Shown in pieces: positions 1-44,549 of a stretch of 64,000 nt of DNA (position 1 is the stretch's first letter; each line of letters opens with the position of its first letter). The position numbers and the translations under genes were made by a program. Under the pieces are notes generated by a model. That model was not told the origin of the DNA, did no database searches, and saw only the letters and a list, made by a program, of their open reading frames with translations. This DNA comes from Minisyncoccia bacterium (lineage in GTDB: Bacteria > Patescibacteriota > Minisyncoccia > Phycocordibacterales > GWA1-40-21): assembly GCA_049695975.1 (NCBI GenBank), contig JBAVTE010000027.1:32972-96971 (forward strand), read 5' to 3'.

Positions 1-2664
1 AATCATTTTGCCATTGCCGAGGAAGTGACGATCAAAGGCAACCGCACCAAACGGCCGGATATTGTCTTGTATGTGAACGGCATCGCTGTTGGCGTGATTG
101 AACTCAAACGAAGTATTGTGTCCGTGTCCGAAGGTATTCGCCAAAACATCGGTAATCAAAAAGAGGAATTTATCAAAACATTTTTCGGCACGATTCAGTT
201 GGTTATGGCCGGCAACGATACTGAAGGCTTGCGTTATGGTACGACCGAGACTCCCGAACAGCATTATCTGTCTTGGAAAGAGACCGGCCTCGGCAGTGAG
301 TCCAGATTGGACCGAGCTATCTTGCAAATTTGCGATAAGAAGCGACTTTTGGAAATCATCCACGACTTTATTGTCTTTGATAGCGGAATAAAAAAGACCT
401 GCCGACACAATCAGTATTTCGGTGTTAAGGCCGCTCAAGATTATGTAAACCGTCACGAGGGCGGAATTGTTTGGCATACGCAAGGCAGTGGCAAGAGTTT
501 GACGATGGTTTGGCTGGCCAAATGGATTCGCGAAAACATCAACGATGCTCGGGTGCTTTTGCTTACCGATCGCACCGAACTTGATCAGCAAATCAAACAG
601 GTCTTTGACGGCGTTAACGAAGAAATATATCGAGCACCAAGTGCCAGAGATTTATTGGATGAATTAAATAAAAAAGATAAGTGGTTACTTTGTTCGCTCG
701 TGCATAAATTCGGCCGAGTAAACGGGACCGGCGAACTTGATGTTGATGACTATCTTTCTGAGATAAAGAAAAATTTGCCGAAGGACTTTTCTGCTAAAGG
801 TAATTTGTTTGTATTTGTGGATGAATGTCATCGCTCCCATACCGGCAAACTGCATGAAGCCATGAAGGAACTTTTGCCAACGGCTACCTTTCTCGGTTTT
901 ACCGGCACACCGCTTCTCAAGGTTGATAAATCAAACAGCATCGGTGCCTTTGGACCGTATATCCATACTTATAAATATAATGAGGCCGTGGCCGACAAGG
1001 TGGTTTTGGATTTGCGTTATGAAGCTCGCCGAGTTGATCAAAGTATTAGCTCTCAAGATAAGATTGATGAATGGTTTGAGGAACGCACCCAAGGGCTTAC
1101 CGATGTTGCCAAAGCCGAGCTCAAGCGACGCTGGGGTACGATGCAAAGTTTGCTTTCATCCCGATCACGTTTGGAGAAAGTGGTTTTTGATATCTTGGAC
1201 GATTTCTACAAAAAGGATCGTTTAGCCAGTGGCCGTGGCAATGCCATGCTCGTTGCCAGTAGTATCTATGAAGCTTGTCAGTATTACGAGATTTTTCAGA
1301 CGATGGGCTTTACTAAGTGTGCCGTGGTGACTTCTTACGAACCCGGTGCTTTGTCTACCGATACTCGCGAATATGCGGTCTATCAGAAAATGTTAAACGG
1401 TAAAAGCACAGAAGACTTTGAGAAAGAAATCAAAAAGAAATTTATTGAGACTCCGGGTCAGATGCAGTTATTGATTGTGGTAGATAAACTTTTGACTGGT
1501 TTTGACGCACCTCCGGCCACGTATCTCTACATTGATAAGAACATGCAGGATCACGGTCTGTTCCAAGCAATCTGTCGTGTGAACCGATTGGACGGTGAAG
1601 ACAAAGAGTACGGCTACATCGTAGACTATCGGGACCTGTTCAAAAAGCTGGAGAAAGCAGTTGGCGATTATACCGCCGGTGCTCTCGAAGGTTTTGATAA
1701 AGAAGATGTGATGGGGCTTTTGAAGGATCGCATGGATGAAGGCAAAAAGGATTTGGACGAGGCGATGGAGATCGTGAAGGCACTTTGCGAGCCAGTATCT
1801 CCGCCAAAAGATTCGGCGATGTATATCCGCTATTTCTGTGGTGATGTTGAAAATCCTTACTCCCTCAAAGAAAACGAAATCAAGCGAGTGAAGCTTTATA
1901 AATCAGTCAGTCATCTACTTCGAGCTTATGCCGACTTGGCCAATGATATGGCTGGAGCTGGTTATACCAAAGATCAGGCACAAGCGATTGAGCATGAGGT
2001 TAGATATTACGAACAAGTCCGAATGGAAGTTAAACTTGCCAGCGGTGACTATATTGATCTCAAGAAATACGAACCAGCAATGCGAGTTTTGATTGATCGT
2101 TATATTTCAGCTACCGAAAGTGAAAAGTTATCGGCGTTTGATGATATGACTTTGGTGGACTTGATCGTGAAGAAAGGTGAAGACGCCTTGAATGACTTGC
2201 CGGACGCAATTAAGCAAAGTCAGGAAGCTGTTGCTGAAACGATTGAGAACAACGTCCGCAAATTGATCATTGATGAGATGCCGACTAACCCGAAGTATTA
2301 TTTGCGAATGTCTGAACTTTTGGATGAGCTGGTCAAGAAACGCAAACAGGCTGATGTTGAATATAAGGAATATTTGAAGCAGATCGTGGCTTTGTCCAAG
2401 AAGGTTAAAAACCCGATGAACGAGTCGGTTGGTGCGGAAATAAACACTTCCGCCAAGCGAGCCATTTATGACAACCTCGGTCAGGATGTGAACAAGGCTG
2501 TTGCCGTACATGATGCTGTGATCGCTTCGAGGCAAGCCGATTGGCGTGGTAATCGTTTGAAAGAGCGAGCCATTAAGATTGAAATCAAAAACGCTTTGCC
2601 GGAGATCACGGACGAGGAGTTGAAAAACCTCTTTGAGATTATTAAGAATCAAAATGAGTACTAA
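1..2664 (+). CDS. hsdR: Type I restriction enzyme R subunit (HsdR), 5'-truncated by window edge
   Basis: Frame is open from nt 1. N-terminal PD-(D/E)xK-like segment RPDIVLYVNGIAVGVIELKRS. Helicase motifs GSGKS (Walker A), FVDECHRSH (DEAH/DECH box) and FLGFTGTP. Size and order are typical of HsdR. Confidence 0.85.
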   Translation, partial: NHFAIAEEVTIKGNRTKRPDIVLYVNGIAVGVIELKRSIVSVSEGIRQNIGNQKEEFIKTFFGTIQLVMAGNDTEGLRYGTTETPEQHYLSWKETGLGSESRLDRAILQICDKKRLLEIIHDFIVFDSGIKKTCRHNQYFGVKAAQDYVNRHEGGIVWHTQGSGKSLTMVWLAKWIRENINDARVLLLTDRTELDQQIKQVFDGVNEEIYRAPSARDLLDELNKKDKWLLCSLVHKFGRVNGTGELDVDDYLSEIKKNLPKDFSAKGNLFVFVDECHRSHTGKLHEAMKELLPTATFLGFTGTPLLKVDKSNSIGAFGPYIHTYKYNEAVADKVVLDLRYEARRVDQSISSQDKIDEWFEERTQGLTDVAKAELKRRWGTMQSLLSSRSRLEKVVFDILDDFYKKDRLASGRGNAMLVASSIYEACQYYEIFQTMGFTKCAVVTSYEPGALSTDTREYAVYQKMLNGKSTEDFEKEIKKKFIETPGQMQLLIVVDKLLTGFDAPPATYLYIDKNMQDHGLFQAICRVNRLDGEDKEYGYIVDYRDLFKKLEKAVGDYTAGALEGFDKEDVMGLLKDRMDEGKKDLDEAMEIVKALCEPVSPPKDSAMYIRYFCGDVENPYSLKENEIKRVKLYKSVSHLLRAYADLANDMAGAGYTKDQAQAIEHEVRYYEQVRMEVKLASGDYIDLKKYEPAMRVLIDRYISATESEKLSAFDDMTLVDLIVKKGEDALNDLPDAIKQSQEAVAETIENNVRKLIIDEMPTNPKYYLRMSELLDELVKKRKQADVEYKEYLKQIVALSKKVKNPMNESVGAEINTSAKRAIYDNLGQDVNKAVAVHDAVIASRQADWRGNRLKERAIKIEIKNALPEITDEELKNLFEIIKNQNEY

Positions 2665-3379
2665 TTCTTATCTACAACTTGGCAGTGTCGAAGCTTTGGT
2701 CGTCCGCAAGCCGATCAAGAATTTGCATCTTTCGGTTTTACCTCCCAATGGCTGGGTGCGTGTGACCGCACCGGCCAATATGAAAGACGATGCTATCCGC
2801 ACGCTCTTAGCTTTGAGATTGCCGTGGATTAAGAAACAGCAAGCCAAATTTACCGGTCAAGAAAGGCAAACTAAGCGTGACTATTCGTCTGGTGAGAGTC
2901 ATTACTTTTTTGGCAAACGCTATCGCCTTGAAGTGGTTTATAAAGACGAAGCACCGGTTGTTACCTTGAAAGGCAAAAATAAGATTATTTTACAGGTTCG
3001 GCCAAAGAGCCCAGCAATCAAACGTCGAGAAGTGATGATGGATTGGTATCGCAAGGAATTGCATGTGATTGTTGGTGATCTAATTGCTAAGTGGCAAAAG
3101 AAAATAAGCGTAGAGGTTAAATTCTGGGGCATCAAGCAGATGAAGACTCGCTGGGGTACGTGCAATCATAAAAAGGCACGAGTCTTGATAAATTTAGAGC
3201 TGGCCAAAAAGCCGATTGCCTGCGTGGAGTATGTCGTAGTCCACGAGCTATTGCATTTGATTGAGAAAAAACACAGCGACAAATTTGTCGCCTTAATGAC
3301 AAAATATATCCCGAAATGGAAAGGCATAAAAGAAGAACTGAACAGCTTTATTTTGTCGTACGAGGAGTGGAAGTATTAA
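2654..3379 (+). CDS. DUF45/YgjP-like HExxH metal-dependent hydrolase, commonly linked to hsdR
   Basis: HELLHL zinc-binding motif and WGTCN motif. The ATG at 2654 overlaps the hsdR stop (ATGA), suggesting translational coupling. Confidence 0.6.
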   Translation: MSTNSYLQLGSVEALVVRKPIKNLHLSVLPPNGWVRVTAPANMKDDAIRTLLALRLPWIKKQQAKFTGQERQTKRDYSSGESHYFFGKRYRLEVVYKDEAPVVTLKGKNKIILQVRPKSPAIKRREVMMDWYRKELHVIVGDLIAKWQKKISVEVKFWGIKQMKTRWGTCNHKKARVLINLELAKKPIACVEYVVVHELLHLIEKKHSDKFVALMTKYIPKWKGIKEELNSFILSYEEWKY

Positions 3380-3450
3380 CCTTGACTAGTAAAAATAGGC
3401 TGTAATTTGCTATCGAAAAATTTTCGATAAACTGATATAATTATTGTAGT

Positions 3451-4518
3451 ATGAAATCACAATCCTCAAAAATTAAAGTCGTTGATTTATTTTGTGGCAT
3501 TGGTGGACTGACACACGGTCTTATCAAGGAGGGTTTAGATGTGGTCGCAGGAATTGATAACGATTCAAGCTGTAAATTTGGATATGAATACAACAACAAG
3601 GCTCAATTTATTGACAGCGACATTCTTAAGGTAACACCAGACCAAATCAATAAATTATTTGGTACAAAAAAAGGCACGATCCGTGTTCTTGCTGGTTGTG
3701 CCCCTTGCCAGCCATTTTCAAGATTGAATCTAAAAAAAGTTACCGAAAAACAACTTGAACCTTTGGGTAAATTTGCTCAACTTATCGCGGCTATTCAGCC
3801 TGACATTGTCTCGATGGAGAATGTTAGTGGTTTAGCTGATACAAATAAATATCCCGTCTTTGCAAAATTTATAAAGACACTGGATGATAATGGGTATAAA
3901 TATAAATATGAAGTAGTAGATGTCTCAGAATTTGGCGTACCTCAAAAACGAAAACGATTAGTTTTACTGGCTTCAAAGTTTGGTGAAATTGAATTGATAA
4001 AAAGAACTCACAAAGATAAGCGAGTTACTGTTCGTGATGTCATCAAACACCTTGAACCAATCAAAGATGGTCAAACAAGCAAAAAAGACCCTCTTCATAA
4101 GGCAAGAAAACTTGATCAAATAAATCTTTATCGAATCAAGGCGACTCCGCACAATGGTGGAAACTCAGAAAGTTGGAGTGAAGATTTGATGCTTGCTTGC
4201 CACAAAAAAGCATCTGGGAAAACCTATCGGAGTACCGTATATGGCCGAATGAGATGGGATGAACCAGCACCGACTATGACAACGCAATGCATAGGTCTAG
4301 GGAATGGTCGTTTTGGTCACCCAACACAAAATCGTGCTATAAGTTTAAGGGAGGCCGCAATATTTCAAACATTCCCTGAAAATTATAAATTTACCGAGTC
4401 CGAAGACTCTATGGTGGTTACTAAAGTAGCAAAGTTTATTGGAAACGCAGTACCCGTAAGGCTGGGATCAGTCATTGGCAAGAGTATCAAGAATCACGTT
4501 AGACAATATGAAAAATAA
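3451..4518 (+). CDS. dcm: DNA (cytosine-5)-methyltransferase
   Basis: Motif I DLFCGIGG, motif IV GCAPCQPFS, motif VI ENV, motif VIII QKRKR, motif X GNAVPV. Confidence 0.9.
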   Translation: MKSQSSKIKVVDLFCGIGGLTHGLIKEGLDVVAGIDNDSSCKFGYEYNNKAQFIDSDILKVTPDQINKLFGTKKGTIRVLAGCAPCQPFSRLNLKKVTEKQLEPLGKFAQLIAAIQPDIVSMENVSGLADTNKYPVFAKFIKTLDDNGYKYKYEVVDVSEFGVPQKRKRLVLLASKFGEIELIKRTHKDKRVTVRDVIKHLEPIKDGQTSKKDPLHKARKLDQINLYRIKATPHNGGNSESWSEDLMLACHKKASGKTYRSTVYGRMRWDEPAPTMTTQCIGLGNGRFGHPTQNRAISLREAAIFQTFPENYKFTESEDSMVVTKVAKFIGNAVPVRLGSVIGKSIKNHVRQYEK

Positions 4519-6211
4519 TAACACATTCTCATTCGAAATCTCATTAAGTGTTCTGAATCATCTCGGAAGGAACTTGTACAGGAATTTTATTACTGTACTT
4601 GGTGAAGCGATATCTAATTCATGGGATGCAGATGCAAATAATGTTTGGATAGATATTAATAGCGATAATAATTTTTTTATAAAAGATGATGGTTGTGGAA
4701 TGAATAACCACGATTTTCAGAATAAATTTTTGAAAATCGGCTACTCAAAGAGAAAGGGTAACGGAATATCCTCTCCGAATCATCGTCCATATATCGGTGC
4801 AAAGGGAATAGGTAAATTGGCGTTGCTTTCATGTGCTGAAAAAATAAGTGTCATATCCAAAACCAATAACACTGAATATGTCGGAGGTGTTATAGACAAT
4901 TCTGGTCTTACTAAAGCGATTGAACACGATCTGACCCCAGATAAGTATAAATTAGGAAAGGTGGATTTGAAATCATTCACGCAATATACAGCTGGGCATA
5001 AAAAAGGCACTATTATCTATTTTGATCAAACTAAAGAAGATATAAAAGGCACAATCCCGCATTTGAAGAAATTGATTGCATTATATTTTAGATTTTCTTT
5101 GATTGATGAGAGTTTTAAAATTTTTGTAAATAATGAACAAGTGACGTTTGGTGATATAAAGGACCTGTCAGATGCAACGGAATTTTTATGGAATATCAAC
5201 GACCTAAAAGATCCATATACCGACACATTATCCAAGCTCAAGAATGAGTCAATCGGTTTAAGCACTGCGTTGAAAATCAAAGGTTTTATCGCGACTGTTG
5301 AAAAACCGAGAAATTTAAAAATCGCTGGTACTGAGGAAAAAATCGGTATTGATTTATTTGTTAATGGACGATTAAGAGAAAGGGATATTTTAAAATACTT
5401 GCCTGCTTTTTCGACAAGACATATAGCGAGTTACCTTTATGGTCAAGTGCATTTTGATGAATTAGATAAGGATGGAAAAGATAGGTTTACTAGTAGTAGA
5501 GACGGGATCATTCCTGGAGATGAAAAATATAAAGGATTAATCGAAACTTTGAGAAATGAAATCCTAGAAAAAATTAGTAATAAGTGGGATGAACTTCGCT
5601 TGGCCAGAGATGAAGATGGTGATGATGAGAATCCAAGAAAAACCCTAAAAGAACGCAGAGCGCTCAGCTTGTACAACCTTTCATCAAAGGATTATTCAGG
5701 CGTTAAAAACAACAAAGTTGGTTCCTGGGTTAAAGAATTGCAACCAGATGCGGAATTCAATATCCCGTCATATGTCGACTGTTTTATATCGGAAAACCTT
5801 ATACGAAAATTTATCAAGCATAAAAAAATATCTCTTGATACCAAACGTGACACAATTAATCATTGGAAAAAAATTGAGAATACAGGAAAGACCAACGGTA
5901 ATTTGACTATTGATATAAGAGTTTCAAACGATGATATCTATTATTTGGATATGGAAAATCTTGTGAAAGTCACAGAGCCTAGAAGAGGGTTTCCTCCGAA
6001 TACTTTACTTACAGACGAAACACAGTTTACTCCTATAAGAAATGCTGTTATGCATACGGCTATGTTAACTGACCAAGCAAAGCAAAAGTTAACGACCGTC
6101 TATGAAAATATTAAAGGAAAAGTATTGATTCTTTTGGCTGATAAGAAGAAAGCTTCGACTAAAAGTATCAAAAAAACTAAAAAAGGTAGGGCAAATAATC
6201 TACTAAAGTAA
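4508..6211 (+). CDS. GHKL/HATPase_c_3 (paraMORC-like) ATP-binding protein, translationally coupled to dcm
   Basis: Bergerat-fold motifs EAISNSWDA, IKDDGCGM and GAKGIGKLA. The ATG at 4508 overlaps the dcm 3' end by 11 nt (alternative start at 4475). The C-terminal ~300 aa have no recognised domain. Confidence 0.65.
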   Translation: MKNNNTFSFEISLSVLNHLGRNLYRNFITVLGEAISNSWDADANNVWIDINSDNNFFIKDDGCGMNNHDFQNKFLKIGYSKRKGNGISSPNHRPYIGAKGIGKLALLSCAEKISVISKTNNTEYVGGVIDNSGLTKAIEHDLTPDKYKLGKVDLKSFTQYTAGHKKGTIIYFDQTKEDIKGTIPHLKKLIALYFRFSLIDESFKIFVNNEQVTFGDIKDLSDATEFLWNINDLKDPYTDTLSKLKNESIGLSTALKIKGFIATVEKPRNLKIAGTEEKIGIDLFVNGRLRERDILKYLPAFSTRHIASYLYGQVHFDELDKDGKDRFTSSRDGIIPGDEKYKGLIETLRNEILEKISNKWDELRLARDEDGDDENPRKTLKERRALSLYNLSSKDYSGVKNNKVGSWVKELQPDAEFNIPSYVDCFISENLIRKFIKHKKISLDTKRDTINHWKKIENTGKTNGNLTIDIRVSNDDIYYLDMENLVKVTEPRRGFPPNTLLTDETQFTPIRNAVMHTAMLTDQAKQKLTTVYENIKGKVLILLADKKKASTKSIKKTKKGRANNLLK

Positions 6212-13748: not shown

Positions 13749-13926
13749 AACATTTTAATATATAAGATTATAACATTATGACCCATTTGACAATGGCAAC
13801 GCTTTACACTACCATATAGTGAGTTTAGTGTTCTTTGAGATACTCTAAAATACAGTTGAGGAAAAAGCCTGTTTCTACGGAATTTCAGCAAAAACCATCG
13901 AAATCTAACCATGAAAGGAGATGTTT

Positions 13927-14931
13927 ATGAGGATATTAATTCTGTATAATCTCGCCAAGATAGTTAAGAAAGGGATTACTAACGATCTGGTTTGTGAGAA
14001 GGAGATTGAAATCATCGTGCCTTTAATAGTTGATTCATTACTTGCACGAGGACATCAAGTTAAAACACTTGAAACAGATCGAAATGTTTGGGAAAAATTA
14101 AAAAAACTCAAACCTGAGATTGATATTGTTCTTAATTTAGCCGAAGGTTTTGGGGGATGTAACATAAACGAAACATTTGTGCCAGCATTATTAGAGGCAT
14201 TAGAGATTCCGTTTACTGGAGCTTCTTCCCGAAACATGATGTTTACGATGGATAAGGAAAAAACAAATCTTGTTTTAGGTGCTTACAATATACCTACACC
14301 TTGTCGAAAATTATTTAGACAAGGACAAAGTAAATTTATTGAGTTAGGTTTGAATTTTCCCGTCATCGTAAAACCCGTTAGAGAAGAGGCTAGTATCGGT
14401 ATTACTTATGATAGTGTCGTCTCAAATCACAAGGATCTTGTTGATAAAGTAGATCGTGTGTTTAAACTTTATCAACAATCGGCTCTTGTTGAAGAATTCA
14501 TAGAGGGTAGAGAAATCTCTGTAGGAATCATTGGAAATGGCACTAATGTCCATGTTTTTCCACCACTCGAGTTTATATTTGAAGATTCTATTCCTGTTTT
14601 AAAAAGAATTAGATCTTATGAATATAAATGGGATGGTGGAAAAGAAGCTATGACCAAAGCAAAGTTACCCGACGATTTGATTACTAAGTTACAGGAGTAT
14701 ACGAAAGTTGCTTACTTAGTAACGGATTGTCGGGATTATGCAAGGATGGATTATCGGTTGACGGATAAGAACGAAATATTTTTACTTGAAGTCAACTATA
14801 ATCCTGGAATTGGACCAAATACTCATGGTCTAAATAATACATTGACCATGATGGCAAGCTTTGAAGGTCATTCATTTGAGGATCTCATCGAATGGATTAT
14901 TTTCACAGCCAAGGAAAGATATGTTTCTTGA
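13927..14931 (+). CDS. ATP-grasp ligase, D-Ala-D-Ala ligase-like
   Basis: FPVIVKP, EEFIEGREISV and the Mg-binding LEVNYNPG motif. AAGGAG sits upstream. The start could be 13921 or 13927. Confidence 0.7.
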   Translation: MRILILYNLAKIVKKGITNDLVCEKEIEIIVPLIVDSLLARGHQVKTLETDRNVWEKLKKLKPEIDIVLNLAEGFGGCNINETFVPALLEALEIPFTGASSRNMMFTMDKEKTNLVLGAYNIPTPCRKLFRQGQSKFIELGLNFPVIVKPVREEASIGITYDSVVSNHKDLVDKVDRVFKLYQQSALVEEFIEGREISVGIIGNGTNVHVFPPLEFIFEDSIPVLKRIRSYEYKWDGGKEAMTKAKLPDDLITKLQEYTKVAYLVTDCRDYARMDYRLTDKNEIFLLEVNYNPGIGPNTHGLNNTLTMMASFEGHSFEDLIEWIIFTAKERYVS

Positions 14932-28480: not shown

Positions 28481-29578
28481 ATGTCACTAAGTATTGGGAT
28501 AGTCGGATTGCCAAATGTTGGAAAATCAACGCTTTTTAATGCGTTAACTCGTAAGGCCGTACCTTGCGAAAATTATCCTTTTTGTACGATAGATCCATCC
28601 GTGGGCGTGGTTGCTGTGCCTGACGAACGACTGGGTAAACTTTCAACTTTTTCAAAATCAGCGAAAACTGTTCCTGCTGCGATAGAATTTGTAGATATTG
28701 CTGGACTTGTAAAAGGTGCTTCGGCAGGAGAAGGTCTCGGTAATAAATTTCTCACAAATATTCGTGAGACAGATGCTATTGCGGAAATGGTCCGTATTTT
28801 TGAGGATGAAAATATTATTCATGTAGCAAATAAAATTGATCCACTTTCTGATATTGAAGTTATCAATCTTGAACTCATTCTTGCCGATTTACAAACTGTT
28901 ACGAAACGACTCGGAAGTATTGAAACTGATATAAGAAGGGGTAGTAAAGATGCTGTGATAGAGAAAGAAGCTTTGGAAAAAATAAAAATATCTCTGGAAA
29001 ATGGCAAGCTCGGAAAAGTAGCTTCACTTAATGAAAAAGAAATTCCTCTTATAAAAGGGTTATGTCTTTTGACAATGAAGCCAATCCTATATGTTTTGAA
29101 TAAAAAATCTGGCGGAAAAAATCTTGACGATTTAAACGATGAACGGTATCAAAAACTTTTAACATTCTTCAGAGAAACAAACTCAAAATATGTAATCGTA
29201 GATGCAGGAATTGAAAATGAACTAAAAGAATTTGAGGGTGTAGATAAATATGATATGAGGGAAGGTTTGGGGGTCAAAGATGATGGAATAAATGATTTGA
29301 TAAAAGCCGGTTATGACCTCCTCGGACTTATCACTTATTTTACTACCGGAGAAGATGAAACTCGCGCTTGGACTATCAAGAAAGGTTGGACTGCACCTGA
29401 AGCCGGGACGGCTATTCACGGAGATTTCAAAGACAAGTTTATCAGAGCCGAGGTTATTTTCTGGCAAAACCTTTTAGATGCTGGTTCATACGGGAATGCT
29501 CGTGAAAAAGGACTAGTTCGCACAGAAGGGAAGGAATATATAGTTAAAGATGGTGATGTGGTGGAATTTAAAATATAG
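28481..29578 (+). CDS. ychF: Ribosome-binding ATPase YchF
   Basis: G1 motif [12 protein letters not shown] and C-terminal TGS domain (DGDVVEFKI). The internal Met at 28481 fits the family N-terminus. Confidence 0.9.
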
Positions 29579-30576: not shown

Positions 30577-31800
30577 ATGACAGTTAAACAAAAAAAATCT
30601 CAAAAAGTCTTCGTGGGAATGTCTGGGGGAGTCGACTCTTCCGTTTCTGCAGCACTTTTAAAAAAGGATGGGTATGACGTAACTGGAGTTTTTATAAAAG
30701 TTTGGCAACCTGACTTTGTAGAATGCACTTGGCGAGAAGATAGACTTGACGCGATGAGAGTTTGTGCCAAACTTCACATACCTTTTTTTACACTTGATTT
30801 GGAAAAAGAATATAAAAAAGAAGTCGCTGACTATATGATAGATGAGTACAAAAAAGGAAAAACTCCGAATCCTGATGTAATGTGTAATAAATATGTAAAG
30901 TTCGGCGCTTTTTTTGATTGGGCTATAAAGCAGGGTGCTGATTTTGTGGCGACGGGGCATTATGCACGCGCAAGCAAAGTTCTAGAAGATAGTTCGTCGG
31001 AGTACGGGTTGGCTGCCCAGCGGGAAGTCAACCTCAAGTCTCGGCCTCGCTCGTCCGCTCCAGAAAGCGGACACCTGTGGCCTGTCTCGGCCTGCGAAGC
31101 CTCCAAAAACGAACTATCTTCTAGGACTTTACCTACCCAACTCTTGGCCGGCAAAGACAAGAATAAAGACCAATCATATTTTCTCTGGACTCTTACTCAA
31201 AAGCAATTACAAAAAACACTTTTTCCGATAGGCAACACCGAAAAACCAGAGGTCAGAAAAATTGCCAAAAAGCTCGGACTTTCGACTGCGGAGAAAAAGG
31301 ATAGTCAGGGTGTTTGCTTCCTCGGCAAATTTGATATGAAAGATTTTTTGAATCATTATATAAAAGAATGTCTTGGAAAAGTTTTAAATGAAAAAGGGGA
31401 GGTGGTAGGTAGTCATAATGGAGCAATATTTCTCACAATAGGGCAGAGACATGGTTTTAAAATTATAAAAAAAACAAATTCGAGCAAACCACTTTTTGTG
31501 ATAGCAAAAAATTTACAAAAAAATACAATTACTGTTTCTGAAAATCCAGTACAAGATACAGGTGAGTCCAAAGAAATTGAAATAGAGAAAGTCAGCTGGA
31601 CGGGAGGAGTGGATCCAGATTTATCAAAAAGATATTTTGCCAGAATCCGATATAGACAAACGCTTTTACCGTGTAAAATCAAAAAAAGTGTTGGTAGCGT
31701 TGTCATTTCTTTTGAAGAATCACAAAAAGCAGTTTCCTCGGGACAATCTCTAGTAATATATGATGGGGAAGTATGCCTCGGTGGCGGAATAATAAAATAA
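30577..31800 (+). CDS. mnmA: tRNA-specific 2-thiouridylase MnmA, carrying an in-frame ~50-aa GC-rich insertion
   Basis: PP-loop SGGVDSS, DQSYFLW, and C-terminal beta-barrel domain. A foreign segment lies between GHYARA and LAGKDKNKDQSYF. Confidence 0.88.
   Translation: MTVKQKKSQKVFVGMSGGVDSSVSAALLKKDGYDVTGVFIKVWQPDFVECTWREDRLDAMRVCAKLHIPFFTLDLEKEYKKEVADYMIDEYKKGKTPNPDVMCNKYVKFGAFFDWAIKQGADFVATGHYARASKVLEDSSSEYGLAAQREVNLKSRPRSSAPESGHLWPVSACEASKNELSSRTLPTQLLAGKDKNKDQSYFLWTLTQKQLQKTLFPIGNTEKPEVRKIAKKLGLSTAEKKDSQGVCFLGKFDMKDFLNHYIKECLGKVLNEKGEVVGSHNGAIFLTIGQRHGFKIIKKTNSSKPLFVIAKNLQKNTITVSENPVQDTGESKEIEIEKVSWTGGVDPDLSKRYFARIRYRQTLLPCKIKKSVGSVVISFEESQKAVSSGQSLVIYDGEVCLGGGIIK
30978..31128. mobile_element. 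151-bp GC-rich insertion with 19-bp terminal inverted repeats, in-frame within mnmA (MITE-like)
   Basis: Left end AGTTCTAGAAGATAGTTCG; right end CGAACTATCTTCTAGGACT (18/19 reverse-complementary). Interior is about 62% GC against about 33% in the host gene. Confidence 0.6.
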
Positions 31801-31816
31801 ACGGTATAATCCCTCT

Positions 31817-32668
31817 ATGCCAGAATTTTATATAACGAAATATAATGGAGACAAAGAACTTTTTGATCCACAGAAATTAAAATTATCTCTTTTAAATATC
31901 GGAGCCATACCAGACGTGGCGGATCTTGTAATGGAAGAAGTTTCTAAAAATATTAAAGACGGCTCATCTACTCGTGAGATTTATCGGATGGCTTTTGCTT
32001 TTCTGAAAAAGAGAGAAAGGCCTGTCGCTATAAGATATTCTTTAAAGAAAGCAATAGCTGACCTTGGTCCCACAGGATTTCCTTTTGAAAAATTTGTGGC
32101 AGAAATTTTTAAGGCTCAAGGTTATAATGTAGAAACAGACAAAATTATCAAAGGACATTGTGTTGAGCACGAGATAGATGTTCTGGCATGGAATGAGCAT
32201 GAATTAATTTTAACGGAAGCAAAATTTCACACTGATTTCAGTATGAAATCAGATTTGAAAGTCGCCCTATATATAAAAGCAAGATTTGATGATCTAGCAA
32301 ACACAAAGATTATGATAGGGGGCAAGGAAAGGACGATGACAGAAGGTTGGCTCGTTACAAATACCAAATTCAGCCAAACCGCCATTGAATATGGCCAGTG
32401 TCAAAATCTAAACATGGTCGGATGGAATTACCCTTTTGGAAATAATCTACATAATATGATAGAAAAGGCCGAGCTCATTCCTCTCACAGCACTTACTACA
32501 CTAAATACATCAGAAAAACATATATTTTTATCTCGTGGTATTGTCTTATCTACAAGTTTGTTAGACGAGTCTCTTTTAAAAGAGTTCAATTTTTCCGAAA
32601 CTAGAATCAAAAATATAAAAACAGAAGTAAGCGAGCTTTGCGAACATTGTAAATTACAAATAAAATAA
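31817..32668 (+). CDS. ATP-cone domain fused to a PD-(D/E)xK restriction-endonuclease-like (Mrr-cat-like) domain
   Basis: N-terminal ATP-cone (YITKYNGDKELFDPQKLKLSL). Central HEIDVLAW...LTEAKFH matches D-x(n)-E-x-K. Confidence 0.55.
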   Translation: MPEFYITKYNGDKELFDPQKLKLSLLNIGAIPDVADLVMEEVSKNIKDGSSTREIYRMAFAFLKKRERPVAIRYSLKKAIADLGPTGFPFEKFVAEIFKAQGYNVETDKIIKGHCVEHEIDVLAWNEHELILTEAKFHTDFSMKSDLKVALYIKARFDDLANTKIMIGGKERTMTEGWLVTNTKFSQTAIEYGQCQNLNMVGWNYPFGNNLHNMIEKAELIPLTALTTLNTSEKHIFLSRGIVLSTSLLDESLLKEFNFSETRIKNIKTEVSELCEHCKLQIK

Positions 32669-32669
32669 A

Positions 32670-33479
32670 ATGGCATTTGAATACAAAAAAAGAACAAGAG
32701 GTGTCTACAATCCGAGTGACAAAGAATCATTTCGTCTTTCTCGTTCTAAAATTGATTTATTTGTGCAGTGCCCCCGATGTTTTTATTTAGATATTCGTTT
32801 TGGTACAGGTCGTCCGTCATCTTTCCCATTTACATTAAACAACGCAGTAGATTTACTCATGAAAAAAGAGTTTGACATTCATCGCGTTGCTCAGACCGCA
32901 CATCCCCTTATGAAAAAGTATGGCATAGATGCTGTGCCTTTCAATGATCCACGAATGGAAGAATGGCGAGACGCAATGCGTAGAGGAATATCTTTTTTGC
33001 ACAAACCGACGAATCTCCCGATCAGAGGTGGCATAGATGATGTATGGGTAGATCCAAAAGGTCAGCTTATGATTGTAGATTATAAAGCTACAAGCAAAGA
33101 CGAAGAGATCACTTTAAATGACGAATGGAAAGACGCCTACAAACGCCAAATGGAAATCTATCAATGGCTTTTCAAACAAAACGGTTTCAAAGTATCTGAA
33201 ACAGGATATTTCGTGTATGTAAACGGAAAGACAGACAAAGAAGCTTTTGACGGCAAGCTAGAATTTGATATTTCCATTCTTCCTTACAAAGGCAACACAG
33301 ATTGGATAGAAAAAGTTATTTTTGATATGAAAAAATGTCTAGAGTCAGAAGTTCCTCCAGACCCTGCCGAAAAATGCGAATTTTGTGCATATAGGAAAAT
33401 CACCGGCCAAGTCCTCCTCGATATTTCCAAAACGCAAAAACTTAAAAAACAAGAAAAATCCGACAAAACACTTTTTTAG
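32670..33479 (+). CDS. Cas4/RecB-like PD-(D/E)xK nuclease with Fe-S cluster cysteines (standalone)
   Basis: GGIDDVWVD...IVDYKAT, QxxxY motif (QMEIYQ), N-terminal CPRC and C-terminal C-x12-CEFC. Confidence 0.65.
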   Translation: MAFEYKKRTRGVYNPSDKESFRLSRSKIDLFVQCPRCFYLDIRFGTGRPSSFPFTLNNAVDLLMKKEFDIHRVAQTAHPLMKKYGIDAVPFNDPRMEEWRDAMRRGISFLHKPTNLPIRGGIDDVWVDPKGQLMIVDYKATSKDEEITLNDEWKDAYKRQMEIYQWLFKQNGFKVSETGYFVYVNGKTDKEAFDGKLEFDISILPYKGNTDWIEKVIFDMKKCLESEVPPDPAEKCEFCAYRKITGQVLLDISKTQKLKKQEKSDKTLF

Positions 33480-33487
33480 ACAAAAAA

Positions 33488-34120
33488 ATGTCAAAATTAA
33501 AAATAATTTACAATAAGGATTTCGATGTTAAACGGGTTATAAATACAATTAAAAAAATAGATTGGTTTGTTGAGAATAAATATGAATATAAGAAATTTTC
33601 ATTCCCAAAAGTATTAGACGTAGAAAAACTGAAAGATTATTCAGATGAAGAAATAGAAAATGCTGTTATATCTGAATATGATGAAGAAGTTTATAAAAAG
33701 AATGAAACTTTTTTAATTAATCATTGGTATAAAATATCAGAAGAAATAAAGAACAGTTTTTCAAAAAGCTCTATTCCTGTACAAAATGAATATATAATAT
33801 ATTTTACAAAATATGGTACAGGGGGTAGTTATAACCTACCAAATACTGTAATTATAAATTTAACTAGCCGTTGGGAGGTTGGAATGTTGAGAACGATAAT
33901 CCACGAGATTATTCATCTTGCTATAGAAGAAAATATAATTAAATATAAAATAGGGCAAGCACAAAAGGAAAGAATTGTAGACCTATTTTTCGTCTACAAT
34001 TTTCCAAGAAGAGTATATATGCAAAATGTTTATAATTCTACAAATACAGGAAAAATTGATCAAACATTTGATGATAATTTTCCTGACATGAATGCTGTTA
34101 TTGAAAAATCTTCCCAATAA
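33488..34120 (+). CDS. Hypothetical protein with HExxH motif
   Basis: HEIIHLAIEE. No other recognisable domain. Confidence 0.4.
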   Translation: MSKLKIIYNKDFDVKRVINTIKKIDWFVENKYEYKKFSFPKVLDVEKLKDYSDEEIENAVISEYDEEVYKKNETFLINHWYKISEEIKNSFSKSSIPVQNEYIIYFTKYGTGGSYNLPNTVIINLTSRWEVGMLRTIIHEIIHLAIEENIIKYKIGQAQKERIVDLFFVYNFPRRVYMQNVYNSTNTGKIDQTFDDNFPDMNAVIEKSSQ

Positions 34121-34575: not shown

Positions 34576-35382
34576 ATGCAAGATAATTACGAGAGATTAG
34601 GTGTATATTATAAAGCTATGAAAAAAAATAAAAAAATACATATTGCCGTTTTATTTGGTGGAAAATCGGCTGAACATGAAGTATCAATTAGGTCGGCACA
34701 AAGCATTTATAATGCTCTTGATAAGCAAAAATATGACATTACTCTTATTGGCATAGATAAAAATGGTGTTTGGATTCCTTTTAATACGGAGAAATTACTT
34801 TCCAGCAAGAGAATACTTTTGAGTGAACAAAATATGAATGTTAGCACAGCTGTAGCCTCTTATGGTACTAATGGAGAATTTTTAGCAAAGAAAGGTAATG
34901 GTGGTATGAAAAAAGTTGACATTGTCTTCCCGGTTCTTCACGGTCCTTTTGGCGAGGACGGCACAATTCAAGGTTTGTTAAAGTTAGCTAATGTCCCTTT
35001 TGTCGGAGCGGGTGTTCTAGGTTCGGCGGTTGGAATGGATAAAGATGTTGCGAAGAGACTTTTACGAGATGCCGGTCTACCGACTGCCCACTTTCATGTT
35101 TATAACGAATATGAGAAAAAAACTATTTCATTTGAAAAAATTAAGGTAAACCTTGGATTACCATTTTTTATTAAACCAGCAAATCTCGGATCTTCTGTTG
35201 GTATCACAAAGGTTCATAATAAAGCTGAATTTTTAAAGGCAATAAATTCTGCATTTCACTATGACAATAAAATCCTTATTGAGGAATATATAAGGGGCAA
35301 GGAAATTGAGTGTTCTGTATTAGGTAATGGAAAGCCAACCGCATCAGTTTGTGGGGAAATTATTCCTCATCAATCCTCCTAG
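34576..35382 (+). pseudogene. ddl: D-alanine-D-alanine ligase, C-terminally truncated (about 95 aa missing)
   Basis: N-terminal and central ATP-grasp domains are intact (VLHGPFGEDGTIQGLL, FIKPANLGSSVGI). It stops just before the expected FYDYEAKY/Mg-binding region, and the truncation coincides with the left edge of the inserted island. Confidence 0.6.
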
Positions 35383-42143: not shown

Positions 42144-42737
42144 ATGCCTACAAAAACAGAATTGATGAAAAGAATAGAAAACGAAGTCCTGAATTTAAAA
42201 AAATCTACTCTTTACAAATACAGGACTGAAAATAAATACTTTCCGGTAATAGGAGAGGGAAGTCACAATGCAAAAATATTGTTTGTCGGTGAAGCACCAG
42301 GAAGAAATGAAGCGAAAATTGGGAGACCGTTTTGCGGATCTGCAGGAAAAATACTGGATGAACTTCTGGCTTTTGTAAACATTCCACGAGAAAATATTTA
42401 TATTACAAATATTGTTAAAGACAGGCCTCAGGAAAATAGAGACCCAACGCCTAAAGAAATAGAAATTTATGGGCCATTTTTAGATAGACAAATAAACATA
42501 ATTCAACCCAGCACAATAGTGGCTTTGGGTAGATATTCTATGGGTTACATTATGAAAAAATTTGGACTTCATTCAAAAATCGAGCCGATAGGTAAAATAC
42601 ATGGTAAATCATATGATACAGAAACAAATTATGGAAAAATTAAAATTATCATCTTGTATCACCCATGTGTCGCTGTGTACAATTATTCAAAAATAAACGA
42701 TCTAAAAAAAGATTTTAAAATTTTAAAAAAGATATAA
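42144..42737 (+). CDS. udg: Uracil-DNA glycosylase, family 4
   Basis: GEAPGRNEAKIGRPFCGSAGKILDELL motif. Confidence 0.85.
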   Translation: MPTKTELMKRIENEVLNLKKSTLYKYRTENKYFPVIGEGSHNAKILFVGEAPGRNEAKIGRPFCGSAGKILDELLAFVNIPRENIYITNIVKDRPQENRDPTPKEIEIYGPFLDRQINIIQPSTIVALGRYSMGYIMKKFGLHSKIEPIGKIHGKSYDTETNYGKIKIIILYHPCVAVYNYSKINDLKKDFKILKKI

Positions 42738-42755
42738 ATATGTTATATTCTATTT

Positions 42756-44549
42756 ATGAAATCATCAGAAATTCGTGAAAAATATTTAAAATTTTTTGAA
42801 AAAAAGGGGCATAAAATAATTTCCTCTGCTTCTCTTATTCCAGAAAACTATATAATACCTGACAAAGGATCTCTTTTTACTACTGCTGGTATGCAACCGC
42901 TCATTCCATATTTACTCGGAGAGAAACATCCGGCTGGCACGAGGATTGTCGATGTTCAGAAGTGTGTCAGAACAGGTGATATTGACGATGTAGGCGACAA
43001 TCGCCACCTTACTTTTTTTGAAATGATGGGAAACTGGTCACTCGGTGATTATTTTAAAAAAGAATCTATCGCGTGGAGTATGGAATTTCTGACAGATAAA
43101 AATGAAGGCCTCGGTCTTGATCCAAAAAGACTTTTTGTCACAGTTTTTAAAGGCGAGGAGGGAATACCACTAGATGAAGATTCTATTAAATTTTGGAAAG
43201 AAAATTTTATAAAACACGATATCACCGCGGGTGTCGCTGAAAATGATGGAATTATAAAGAAAGACGTGAGAATTATTCCTCTCGGAAAAGAAGATAATTT
43301 TTGGATTGCTGGTCAAACCGGTCCTTGTGGCGGAGACACTGAGATGTTTTATGATGTGAGATCTGAAGAGGATAAACTTGAAGGAAATTTTTATGATCTT
43401 GTAAAATCCGGCAAAATTATTGAAATTTGGAACAATGTTTTCATGGAGTTCAACAAAACTGCCGATGGAAAATATGAAAAACTAGCAAAACCAAATGTAG
43501 ATACAGGAATGGGGCTCGAAAGAACGACTGTGGTAATACAAGGAAAAAATAATGTATATGAAACAGATATTTTTGAACCTATTATTTCTTATATAAAATC
43601 AAATGCCAAAAAATATGATGAAAAATCATCTCGGATAGTAGCTGACCACATCCGTTCTGCTGTTTTTATAATTTCTGATGGAGTCATTCCTTCAAACACT
43701 GAGGCAGGATATGTCCTTCGAAGAATTTTGAGAAGGGCGATAAGGTTCATAGACATACTTGATCTTTCTAGAGAATCAATTTTTGATTTAGCCAAAATAG
43801 TCATCAATAATTTTTCTTATGCCTATCCTGAATTAAAAAATAAAGAGGTAGAAATTTTGGAAGTGATTAAAAATGAAAATGAAAAATTTAGACTGACGCT
43901 AGAAAAAGGTCTAAAAGAATTTGAAAAAGGTATCGATGTCTTCAATCTGTTTCAAACTTATGGTTTTCCCATTGAAATAACAATAGAATTGGCAAAGGAA
44001 AAGGGGATTGAAATTGATATGAATGATTTTAATGAGAAAATGAAGAAACACCAAGAAATTTCCAAAGCTGGTTCAGAACAGAAATTCAAAGGGGGACTAG
44101 CTGGAACAGGCGAGATGGAGACCCGATATCACACGGCGACACACTTACTACTAGCTTCGCTCAGAAAAGTGCTTGGCGGAGAAATTGTACAAAAGGGAAG
44201 TAATATCACTACAGAAAGAATGCGTTTTGATTTTAATTGGCCAGAAAAAGTGCCTGCAAGCAAACTGAAAGAAATAGAAGATTTGGTCAATCAAAAAATT
44301 CAAGAGAAAATTCCGGTGGAACTGATTGAACTTCCAAAAGAAGAGGCAAAGAAAATCGTCACCACACTTTCATTTGACCTATCTAAATACGGAGATGTCG
44401 TAAAAGTTTATAAAATAGGCGACTTCAGCACCGAATTTTGTGGTGGACCACATGTCGCAAACACCAGTGAACTCGGACATTTTAAAATTACAAAAGAAGA
44501 AGCATCCAGCGCCGGCGTCCGAAGAATAAAAGCAGTTTTGGAGCAATAA
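42756..44549 (+). CDS. alaS: Alanyl-tRNA synthetase, short form lacking the C-Ala domain
   Basis: Catalytic core (FTTAGMQPLIPYLLG, FFEMMGNWSLGDYFK) and editing-domain HxxxH (HTATHLL). 597 aa. Confidence 0.85.
   Translation: MKSSEIREKYLKFFEKKGHKIISSASLIPENYIIPDKGSLFTTAGMQPLIPYLLGEKHPAGTRIVDVQKCVRTGDIDDVGDNRHLTFFEMMGNWSLGDYFKKESIAWSMEFLTDKNEGLGLDPKRLFVTVFKGEEGIPLDEDSIKFWKENFIKHDITAGVAENDGIIKKDVRIIPLGKEDNFWIAGQTGPCGGDTEMFYDVRSEEDKLEGNFYDLVKSGKIIEIWNNVFMEFNKTADGKYEKLAKPNVDTGMGLERTTVVIQGKNNVYETDIFEPIISYIKSNAKKYDEKSSRIVADHIRSAVFIISDGVIPSNTEAGYVLRRILRRAIRFIDILDLSRESIFDLAKIVINNFSYAYPELKNKEVEILEVIKNENEKFRLTLEKGLKEFEKGIDVFNLFQTYGFPIEITIELAKEKGIEIDMNDFNEKMKKHQEISKAGSEQKFKGGLAGTGEMETRYHTATHLLLASLRKVLGGEIVQKGSNITTERMRFDFNWPEKVPASKLKEIEDLVNQKIQEKIPVELIELPKEEAKKIVTTLSFDLSKYGDVVKVYKIGDFSTEFCGGPHVANTSELGHFKITKEEASSAGVRRIKAVLEQ

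Follow-up and report, generated by a model that had tools for sequence, protein, structure and literature searches.

Two adjacent genes in a 64-kb stretch of Minisyncoccia DNA (the window) encode an ATP-cone/nuclease fusion (ORF1) and a Cas4-like nuclease (ORF2). A reading of the sequence alone had proposed that they form a nucleotide-regulated nuclease pair acting as a defence or DNA-repair module. Our analysis somewhat favours a different explanation, in which the two open reading frames (ORFs) are separate, vertically inherited housekeeping nucleases of the Patescibacteria (Minisyncoccia/Paceibacteria) chromosome rather than a dedicated two-gene system. In this explanation their proximity stems from a shared place in an old conserved array, which comprises YchF, MnmA, the ATP-cone nuclease, a variable set of Cas4-like, MGMT, HD-nucleotidase, uracil-DNA glycosylase (UDG) and superoxide dismutase (SOD) genes, and alanyl-tRNA synthetase (AlaRS).

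ORF1 and ORF2 are not an obligate pair

Both ORFs were confirmed on the + strand at the positions given by the sequence-only reading. In the window, MnmA, ORF1 and ORF2 are co-directional and tightly packed, with 16 nt between the MnmA stop and the ORF1 start and 1 nt between the ORF1 stop and the ORF2 start. No terminator-like site was found on the coding strand between ORF1 and ORF2, and promoter-like sites there were no commoner than in shuffled sequence. With the gene order YchF, MnmA, ORF1, ORF2, ~8.6 kb of other genes, UDG, AlaRS, the window retains the backbone seen in relatives.

Neighbourhoods were sampled from both sides. For ORF1, a scan of one genome per species yielded 388 stretches with relatives, from which 80 loci were kept (78 non-redundant loci); for ORF2, 67 metagenomic loci with at least 700 nt of upstream sequence were used. 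A Cas4-like gene, detected by hidden Markov model (HMM), lay within 6 kb of the ORF1 homologue in 17 of the 80 species loci, always downstream and on the same strand. Viewed from the other side, an ORF1 homologue lay directly upstream of the Cas4-like gene in 9/67 metagenomic loci and within 5 kb in 14/67. The gene directly downstream of ORF1 homologues in the 78 loci was most often UDG (22), followed by a Cas4-like gene (13) and a gene of the HD/YfbR-like 5'-deoxynucleotidase type (9), with others making up the rest. Within three genes downstream, UDG was present in 43 loci, AlaRS in 32, a Cas4-like gene in 16, an HD/YfbR-like gene in 11, SOD in 7 and MGMT in 6. MnmA occupied the position immediately upstream in 59/78 species loci. 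The ATP-cone nuclease was the most frequent single neighbour of the Cas4-like gene (13/80 loci), and no other neighbour of that gene was recurrent.

These results show that ORF1 and ORF2 are not an obligate pair and that their adjacency is one state of the old conserved array. The neighbourhood conservation that the sequence-only reading had named as a check on the pair was seen in a minority of loci only, and the results do not support a two-gene module regulated by nucleotides in the window. What survives of that proposal is its first half: nucleotide gating of ORF1 is a reasonable suggestion.

ORF1 is inherited with the housekeeping array

Across 72 species, mean pairwise identity was 55% for the ATP-cone nuclease and 58% for MnmA. 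The mean for the Cas4-like protein was 61%. The identity matrices of the ATP-cone nuclease and MnmA correlated with r=0.55, a value reached by 0 of 999 permutations, and the pairwise identities of ORF1- and ORF2-type proteins correlated with r=0.67. In 78 species, ORF1 homologues sit at a constant position between MnmA and AlaRS. ORF1 is vertically inherited at housekeeping-level constraint from a fixed chromosomal place, the opposite of a mobile defence island, and no methyltransferase or other defence genes were found beside it. The defence half of the earlier proposal is at odds with this array position and MnmA-like conservation. A phage origin of ORF1 was considered and rejected, as a pattern-limited scan of IMG/VR gave no relatives of ORF1.

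ORF1 joins an ATP-cone to a PD-(D/E)xK nuclease

NCBI lists a protein 100% identical to ORF1 as 'restriction endonuclease'; it comes from a metagenome-assembled genome (MAG) of Minisyncoccia, within the Patescibacteria or candidate phyla radiation (CPR). The description of ORF1 from sequence as an N-terminal ATP-cone fused to an Mrr-cat-like D...E-x-K nuclease was borne out by homologue profiles, by the fold and by a 90-100% conserved signature and active site. Residues 87-198 match Pfam Mrr_cat (PF04471) with 26.2 bits against a cut-off of 21. The N-terminus shows the ATP-cone fold, a short β-hairpin followed by a helical bundle, and is closest in structure to the NrdR and NrdB cones; the Pfam ATP-cone model was matched by 18/18 aligned ORF1 homologues (E ≤ 0.01, best 1.6e-9). 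The catalytic set consists of E91, D121 and E134-A-K136 (D...E-x-K), and its D-x12-E-x-K spacing is the same as that of D38/E51/K53, predicted for PDB entry 1y88 (PMC1874628, PMC1821046). A third domain, overlooked by the earlier reading, spans residues ~199-274 and matches the C-terminal domain of 1y88 and Pfam AF1548-like_C. This helical domain is possibly HhH-like and DNA-binding.

An exhaustive family search gave 1118 clusters (50% identity) at E ≤ 1e-3. The best 150 of these, nearly all of ~270-300 aa and matched across almost the whole query, were aligned together with ORF1 as 151 representatives. Of the nuclease residues, E91, D121 and K136 were conserved in 100% and E134 in 99% of them. 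The ATP-cone signature (K-x-x-G ... F ... K-L) was conserved at K8 (97%), G11 (98%), F16 (90%) and K20 (93%). Since the nuclease and cone residues are both conserved, both halves of ORF1 are under strong purifying selection, which speaks for a functional nuclease joined to a functional nucleotide sensor. ORF1 is plausibly a nucleotide-gated nuclease.

ORF1 contains cysteines at positions 115, 195, 275 and 278. C115 immediately precedes the HExD strand and C195 follows the core. They are conserved in 97% and 95% of the 151 members, respectively, and are present in AF1548 too; the Paceibacteria subfamily adds the C-terminal C275-x2-C278 behind the AF1548-like domain. A metal site formed by all four cysteines was considered. 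All four are conserved in the close subfamily, but C275 is a cysteine in only 78/151 representatives and the C278 column holds mostly gaps or other residues, so the four-cysteine site is not a feature of the family.

Comparison with known proteins sets ORF1 apart from each of its partial relatives. AF1548 of Archaeoglobus fulgidus (PDB 1y88; COG1787; Pfam Mrr_cat and AF1548-like_C) shares the nuclease core and C-terminal domain. Unlike in ORF1, the AF1548 match starts at the nuclease core (chain residue ~22), too near the chain start for an ATP-cone to precede it. It stops 5 residues short of the chain end, and AF1548 probably lacks the C-terminal C-x2-C of the Paceibacteria subfamily. As a structural-genomics protein of unknown function, AF1548 gives a fold and no mechanism, and only fold-level predictions were found in the literature on AF1548/1y88 and COG1787. 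In NrdR and in the ribonucleotide reductases that carry an ATP-cone (NrdA, NrdB of Leeuwenhoekiella, NrdD), the output is a reductase or a Zn-ribbon DNA binder, whereas in ORF1 it is a PD-(D/E)xK nuclease. NrdR has an N-terminal Zn-ribbon and then the cone in ~150 aa; ORF1 is 283 aa long with the cone at its extreme N-terminus. The full-length alignment to NrdR-like repressors that the sequence-only reading had held out as another identity for ORF1 was not observed. NrdR matches just ~82 residues (the ATP-cone) of the protein, and ORF1 has no Zn-ribbon, no N-terminal CxxC pairs and no NCBIfam match.

Other PD-(D/E)xK nucleases gated by a sensor are Can2, Card1, Cdn1 and NucC of type III CRISPR and CBASS systems, in which a CARF or SAVED sensor binds cyclic oligoadenylates. 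These nucleases reside in defence loci, in contrast to ORF1, which resides in a housekeeping array and carries an ATP-cone. PADLOC returned marginal matches only for ORF1, including a weak one to the CARF_PDDEXK model (E 8e-4), and Pfam gave a weak match to NA-iREase1. E. coli Mrr carries an N-terminal winged-helix DNA-recognition domain of the Mrr_N type. Pfam reported no such domain in ORF1, where the ATP-cone occupies the N-terminus. Nor was the patchy, horizontally mobile distribution in defence contexts seen that would be expected of an Mrr-type (type IV, modification-dependent) restriction enzyme: ORF1 keeps a fixed locus and co-diverges with MnmA. No paper describing or testing an ATP-cone-regulated nuclease was found.

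ORF2 is a solo Cas4-family nuclease

The NCBI entry that matches ORF2 with 100% identity, from a Minisyncoccia MAG, is named 'PD-(D/E)XK nuclease family protein'. ORF2 scored 55.8 bits with Pfam PDDEXK_1 and 28.2 bits with Pfam Cas_Cas4 (PF01930; cut-off 22.7), and was matched by PADLOC Cas4 models down to E 1.9e-11. Its score with the NCBIfam Cas4 equivalog TIGR00372 was 37.2 bits, under the cut-off of 65. The RecB/Cas4 motifs recognised from sequence (DYK and QxxxY) were upheld: GGxDD (D123/D124), D137-Y-K139 and Q160-x3-Y164 do not vary among 19 sequences, and the same holds for five cysteines (C34, C37 / C223, C236, C239). The 1+3 cysteine arrangement proposed for an Fe-S cluster stood only in part. 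There are enough conserved cysteines for a cluster, but they are laid out as 2+3 (C-x2-C ... C-x12-C-x2-C) rather than as the canonical 1+3 of Cas4 (C ... C-x2-C-x5-C). Judging from these motifs, four ligands would be available in a variant arrangement, and ORF2 probably binds an Fe-S cluster.

The predicted structure of ORF2 (269 aa, pLDDT 82) shows no extra domain. Its nearest folds are the AdnA/AddB nuclease domains, Cas4 SSO0001, Pcal_0546, RecE, MGME1 and Exo5, and TM-scores against solved Cas4 structures were modest (0.32-0.48). The similarity to AdnA/AddB is confined to their nuclease domains (target TM ≤ 0.2). In AddB and RecB the nuclease is fused to or partnered with an SF1 helicase; ORF2 has no helicase domain, and no helicase-type cluster occurred among the recurrent neighbours, where the labels covered clusters of neighbours but not rare singletons. 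The possibility raised by the sequence-only reading that ORF2 belongs to an AddB/RecB housekeeping helicase-nuclease was thus not borne out.

At least 7999 relatives of ORF2 were found, mostly in Paceibacterota, the best 120 at 58-83% identity. Seven viral-labelled IMG/VR contigs also encode relatives of ORF2, at 53-58% identity; these could be CPR phages with a Cas4-like gene or misclassified CPR contigs.

No CRISPR-like or tandem direct repeats were found in the 64 kb, and no cas genes were found among the 37 window ORFs scanned with Pfam (~20 ORFs of at least 120 aa were outside that scan), in agreement with what had been read from the sequence. ORF2 lies outside any CRISPR-cas locus and is a solo nuclease of the Cas4 family. 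It resembles the solo Cas4/pfam12705 nucleases in its stand-alone state outside CRISPR-cas, its RecB motifs and its conserved cysteines, and departs from Cas4 in its TIGR00372 score, cysteine spacing and modest structural similarity. Genes for solo Cas4 are over-represented and show vertical inheritance in CPR (Parcubacteria and others), with a role in repair or defence that is unknown (Hudaiberdiev et al. 2017, PMC5704561), and the archaeal Solo-Cas4 of M. mazei binds a [4Fe-4S] cluster and cleaves dsDNA (PMC12501428).

ORF1 homologues outside Patescibacteria lie near nucleotide-turnover genes

A profile of distant members recovered a three-domain protein of ~280 aa in Bacteroidota, with carriers in Saprospiraceae, Sediminibacterium, Sphingobacterium spiritivorum, Croceitalea, Muricauda, Lutibacter and Euzebyella marina. 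The database names of these homologues are 'restriction endonuclease', 'ATP cone domain-containing protein', 'ATPase' and 'Holliday junction resolvase'. The gene context outside CPR was drawn from 6 loci only (Bacteroidota and one Acidobacteriota-labelled MAG). In 5/6 of these, a β-CASP metallo-β-lactamase nuclease of ~460 aa follows the ORF1 homologue directly or past one small ORF, and 4 of the 5 β-CASP genes adjoin or overlap it. Two of the β-CASP proteins were scanned with NCBIfam and scored best with aCPSF1 and Cas14-type β-CASP RNases. An archaeal-type thymidine/AMP phosphorylase (~500 aa) and a gene for a PRPP-synthetase-like enzyme were nearby in 3/6 loci, including the Acidobacteriota-labelled MAG, and PPK2 was present in one. 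No Cas4-like gene was found near the ORF1 homologues in the 6 loci. The clusters are embedded among Usp, P-type cation-ATPase, RND/Cus metal-efflux and MgtC genes. Together, the context outside CPR points to nucleic-acid and nucleotide turnover, not restriction.

The Sphingobacterium and Sediminibacterium loci have identical coordinates for three full-length upstream genes, which suggests a transferred island. Equating the stress-island context in Bacteroidota with the Burkholderia lxa low-oxygen locus was tried and dropped, since the lxa paper names no phosphorylase, nuclease or ATP-cone gene.

Possible roles and alternative explanations

The oligomeric state of ribonucleotide reductases and NrdR changes when their ATP-cone binds ATP or dATP. 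By analogy, ATP or dATP on the N-terminal cone of ORF1 would change its oligomeric state, and this change may turn on or off its Mg-dependent PD-(D/E)xK nuclease; the nucleic acid would be held by the C-terminal helical domain. ORF1 would thereby make the cutting of nucleic acids depend on the nucleotide pool. ORF2 would act as a nuclease in its own right, probably processing DNA ends or nicks in repair or recombination. The most likely roles of ORF1 are DNA repair or turnover and the recycling of nucleic acid into nucleotides; a specific salvage role is less certain than this general picture. CPR bacteria, which lack de novo nucleotide synthesis, are thought to use nucleases for salvage (PMC7786006), and the neighbours in Patescibacteria are repair and nucleotide-housecleaning genes, namely UDG, MGMT, an HD nucleotidase and, in the window, NUDIX (34162). 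This auxotrophy and these neighbours favour a nucleotide-pool-gated role in DNA maintenance or recycling. Of the two functions first proposed for the genes, repair, widened to nucleotide housekeeping, is the better half, although not as a module.

Several observations weigh against two separate housekeeping nucleases, one of them nucleotide-gated. Where a Cas4-like gene neighbours the ORF1 homologue, the gap is -16 to +15 nt in 12/17 loci, 1 nt in the window, and such tight spacing leaves room for functional coupling in those lineages. Conserved synteny inside one class may mirror shared descent rather than function, so that the association with UDG, MGMT and Cas4 is weak evidence for repair. 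No β-CASP, AMP/thymidine phosphorylase, Prs or PPK2 gene was found in the window or in 86 Patescibacteria loci; with these salvage-type partners missing, the role may differ between lineages. In the domain searches that the sequence-only reading had suggested, Mrr_cat and Cas_Cas4 exceeded their cut-offs and residues 5-75 of ORF1 scored 19.2 bits with Pfam ATP-cone (PF03477), under the gathering cut-off of 25.8. AF1548 (1y88) is a predicted nuclease only, and no report on the biochemistry of any member of the ORF1 family was found.

Extending the reading from the window to the whole family, we tentatively suggest that ORF1 and its homologues in Patescibacteria, Bacteroidota and others might form a new class of ATP-cone-regulated enzyme outside ribonucleotide reduction. 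Members would be nucleases set by ATP or dATP, as a measure of energy or the nucleotide pool, that feed nucleic acid into nucleotide salvage or catabolism, acting in Bacteroidota with the β-CASP nuclease, thymidine/AMP phosphorylase and PRPP-synthetase-like enzyme, and in the nucleotide-auxotrophic Patescibacteria alone or with repair enzymes.

It appears unlikely that the two genes form a co-transcribed, translationally coupled DNA-repair pair, in which the ATP-cone nuclease would introduce a regulated nick or break, or cut a branched intermediate, and the Cas4-like Fe-S exonuclease would resect the end. The narrow gaps, the constant order and strand, the rank of the ATP-cone nuclease among neighbours of the Cas4-like gene, and the occurrence of UDG, MGMT and other repair genes in the same slot are all consistent with such a pair. 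However, adjacency was seen in just ~13-21% of loci from either side, and homologues outside CPR go with a β-CASP nuclease and have no Cas4-like gene nearby. The correlated identities of the two proteins also fit a pair but are expected from vertical descent alone.

We consider an anti-phage module very improbable. Here an Mrr-like (type IV-like) nuclease would be checked or triggered by a phage-perturbed ATP/dATP pool, and the Cas4-like nuclease would degrade the cut DNA. The Mrr_cat match, the weak CARF_PDDEXK match and the action of Cas4-family proteins in some defence systems (PMC5704561, PMC12094033) would fit this idea. It is opposed by the fixed position in a housekeeping array in 78 species, by conservation like that of MnmA with correlated divergence, and by the lack of an Mrr_N-type DNA-recognition domain. 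In addition, ORF1 has no methyltransferase or defence neighbours, the defence genes of the window being more than 25 kb away, the pattern-limited IMG/VR scan gave no relatives of ORF1, and solo Cas4 genes evolve like ordinary cellular genes (PMC5704561).

Least credible is a nucleotide-responsive DNA-binding regulator analogous to NrdR, whose nuclease-fold and C-terminal domains would only bind DNA while ATP or dATP sets repression: the cone is structurally nearest those of NrdR and NrdB, a cone joined to a DNA-binding part parallels NrdR, and inactive restriction-endonuclease folds serve as DNA-binding modules elsewhere (e.g. NA-iREase1), but the near-invariant E91, D121, E134 and K136 are not easily reconciled with a non-catalytic binder, no ribonucleotide reductase gene lay beside an ORF1 homologue in any locus examined, and the Zn-ribbon is missing.

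Gene order and other features of the window

The genes of the array and the domains of ORF1 are listed in Table 1, with coordinates and strand as in the window.

Table 1. Positions of ORF1, ORF2 and the conserved backbone genes in the 64-kb window
Feature	Coordinates	Strand	Description
YchF GTPase	28454..29578	+	upstream part of the conserved backbone
MnmA (tRNA 2-thiouridylase)	30577..31800	+	conserved upstream neighbour of ORF1
ORF1	31817..32668	+	283 aa; ATP-cone, AF1548/Mrr-type PD-(D/E)xK nuclease and AF1548-like C-terminal domain
ORF1 ATP-cone domain	31829..32041	+	residues 5-75
ORF1 PD-(D/E)xK nuclease core	32075..32410	+	residues 87-198; TNTKF(S/T) motif at 181-186
ORF1 AF1548-like C-terminal helical domain	32411..32638	+	residues ~199-274
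ORF2	32670..33479	+	269 aa; stand-alone Cas4/RecB-family (PDDEXK_1) nuclease
UDG superfamily gene	42144..42737	+	commonest downstream neighbour of ORF1 homologues; here displaced by ~8.6 kb
AlaRS	42756..44549	+	downstream end of the conserved backbone

The segment 33488-42074 (~8.6 kb) splits ORF2 from the UDG-AlaRS part of a backbone that is contiguous in most relatives. Its GC content is not distinctive, and it is possibly a lineage-specific insertion. Besides the NUDIX gene (34162), it contains a truncated Ddl gene, a minus-strand ORF of 222 aa, a radical SAM/SPASM enzyme (36893), a SAM methyltransferase (38153), an LD-carboxypeptidase (39402) and a HATPase_c + DUF4325 (STAS-like) protein (40460). 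A 210-aa ORF (33488-34120, +) starts 8 nt after ORF2 and carries an HExxH motif (HEIIH at residue 139). It has no family match in Pfam, NCBIfam or PADLOC and is possibly a small metallopeptidase. The D-Ala-D-Ala ligase gene (34576-35382, +) stops after 268 aa, at position 108/204 of the C-terminal Pfam domain; as it stops early with no continuation in another frame, it looks truncated or like a pseudogene. A second Ddl-like ATP-grasp gene, of 336 aa, is located at 13921-14931 (+).

A defence-type cluster at 25-6211 (+) lies more than 25 kb from ORF1 and ORF2 and is unrelated to them. It contains a fragment of a type I restriction R-subunit (HsdR) cut off by the start of the window (25-2664), a YgjP-like metallopeptidase (2633-3379), a C5 cytosine methyltransferase (Dcm, 3451-4518) and a 578-aa HATPase_c_3 protein (4475-6211). 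Four tRNA genes are present at 21891-22428 (1 on the + strand, 3 on the - strand), between the CTP synthase and ABC/MacB transporter genes.

Significance

Both proteins had already been deposited and annotated, existing Pfam models cover the domains of ORF1, and publications have described solo Cas4 in CPR. The finding matters less for this window, and it is the question at the level of the ORF1 family that is moderately interesting. The family is widespread and, as far as we found in the literature, biochemically uncharacterised. Its orthologues in cultured Bacteroidota (Sphingobacterium, Euzebyella, Croceitalea) make the idea of a nucleotide-gated nuclease directly testable.

ATP-cones are known to act as allosteric switches in ribonucleotide reductases and in the repressor NrdR. 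The fusion of an ATP-cone to a nuclease occurs in at least 1118 sequence clusters, and in reduced genomes it is kept as tightly as a tRNA-modification enzyme. If the proposed gating is correct, ATP/dATP sensing would extend to nucleic-acid cleavage, and the enzyme of Patescibacteria could help to balance DNA upkeep against nucleotide recycling.

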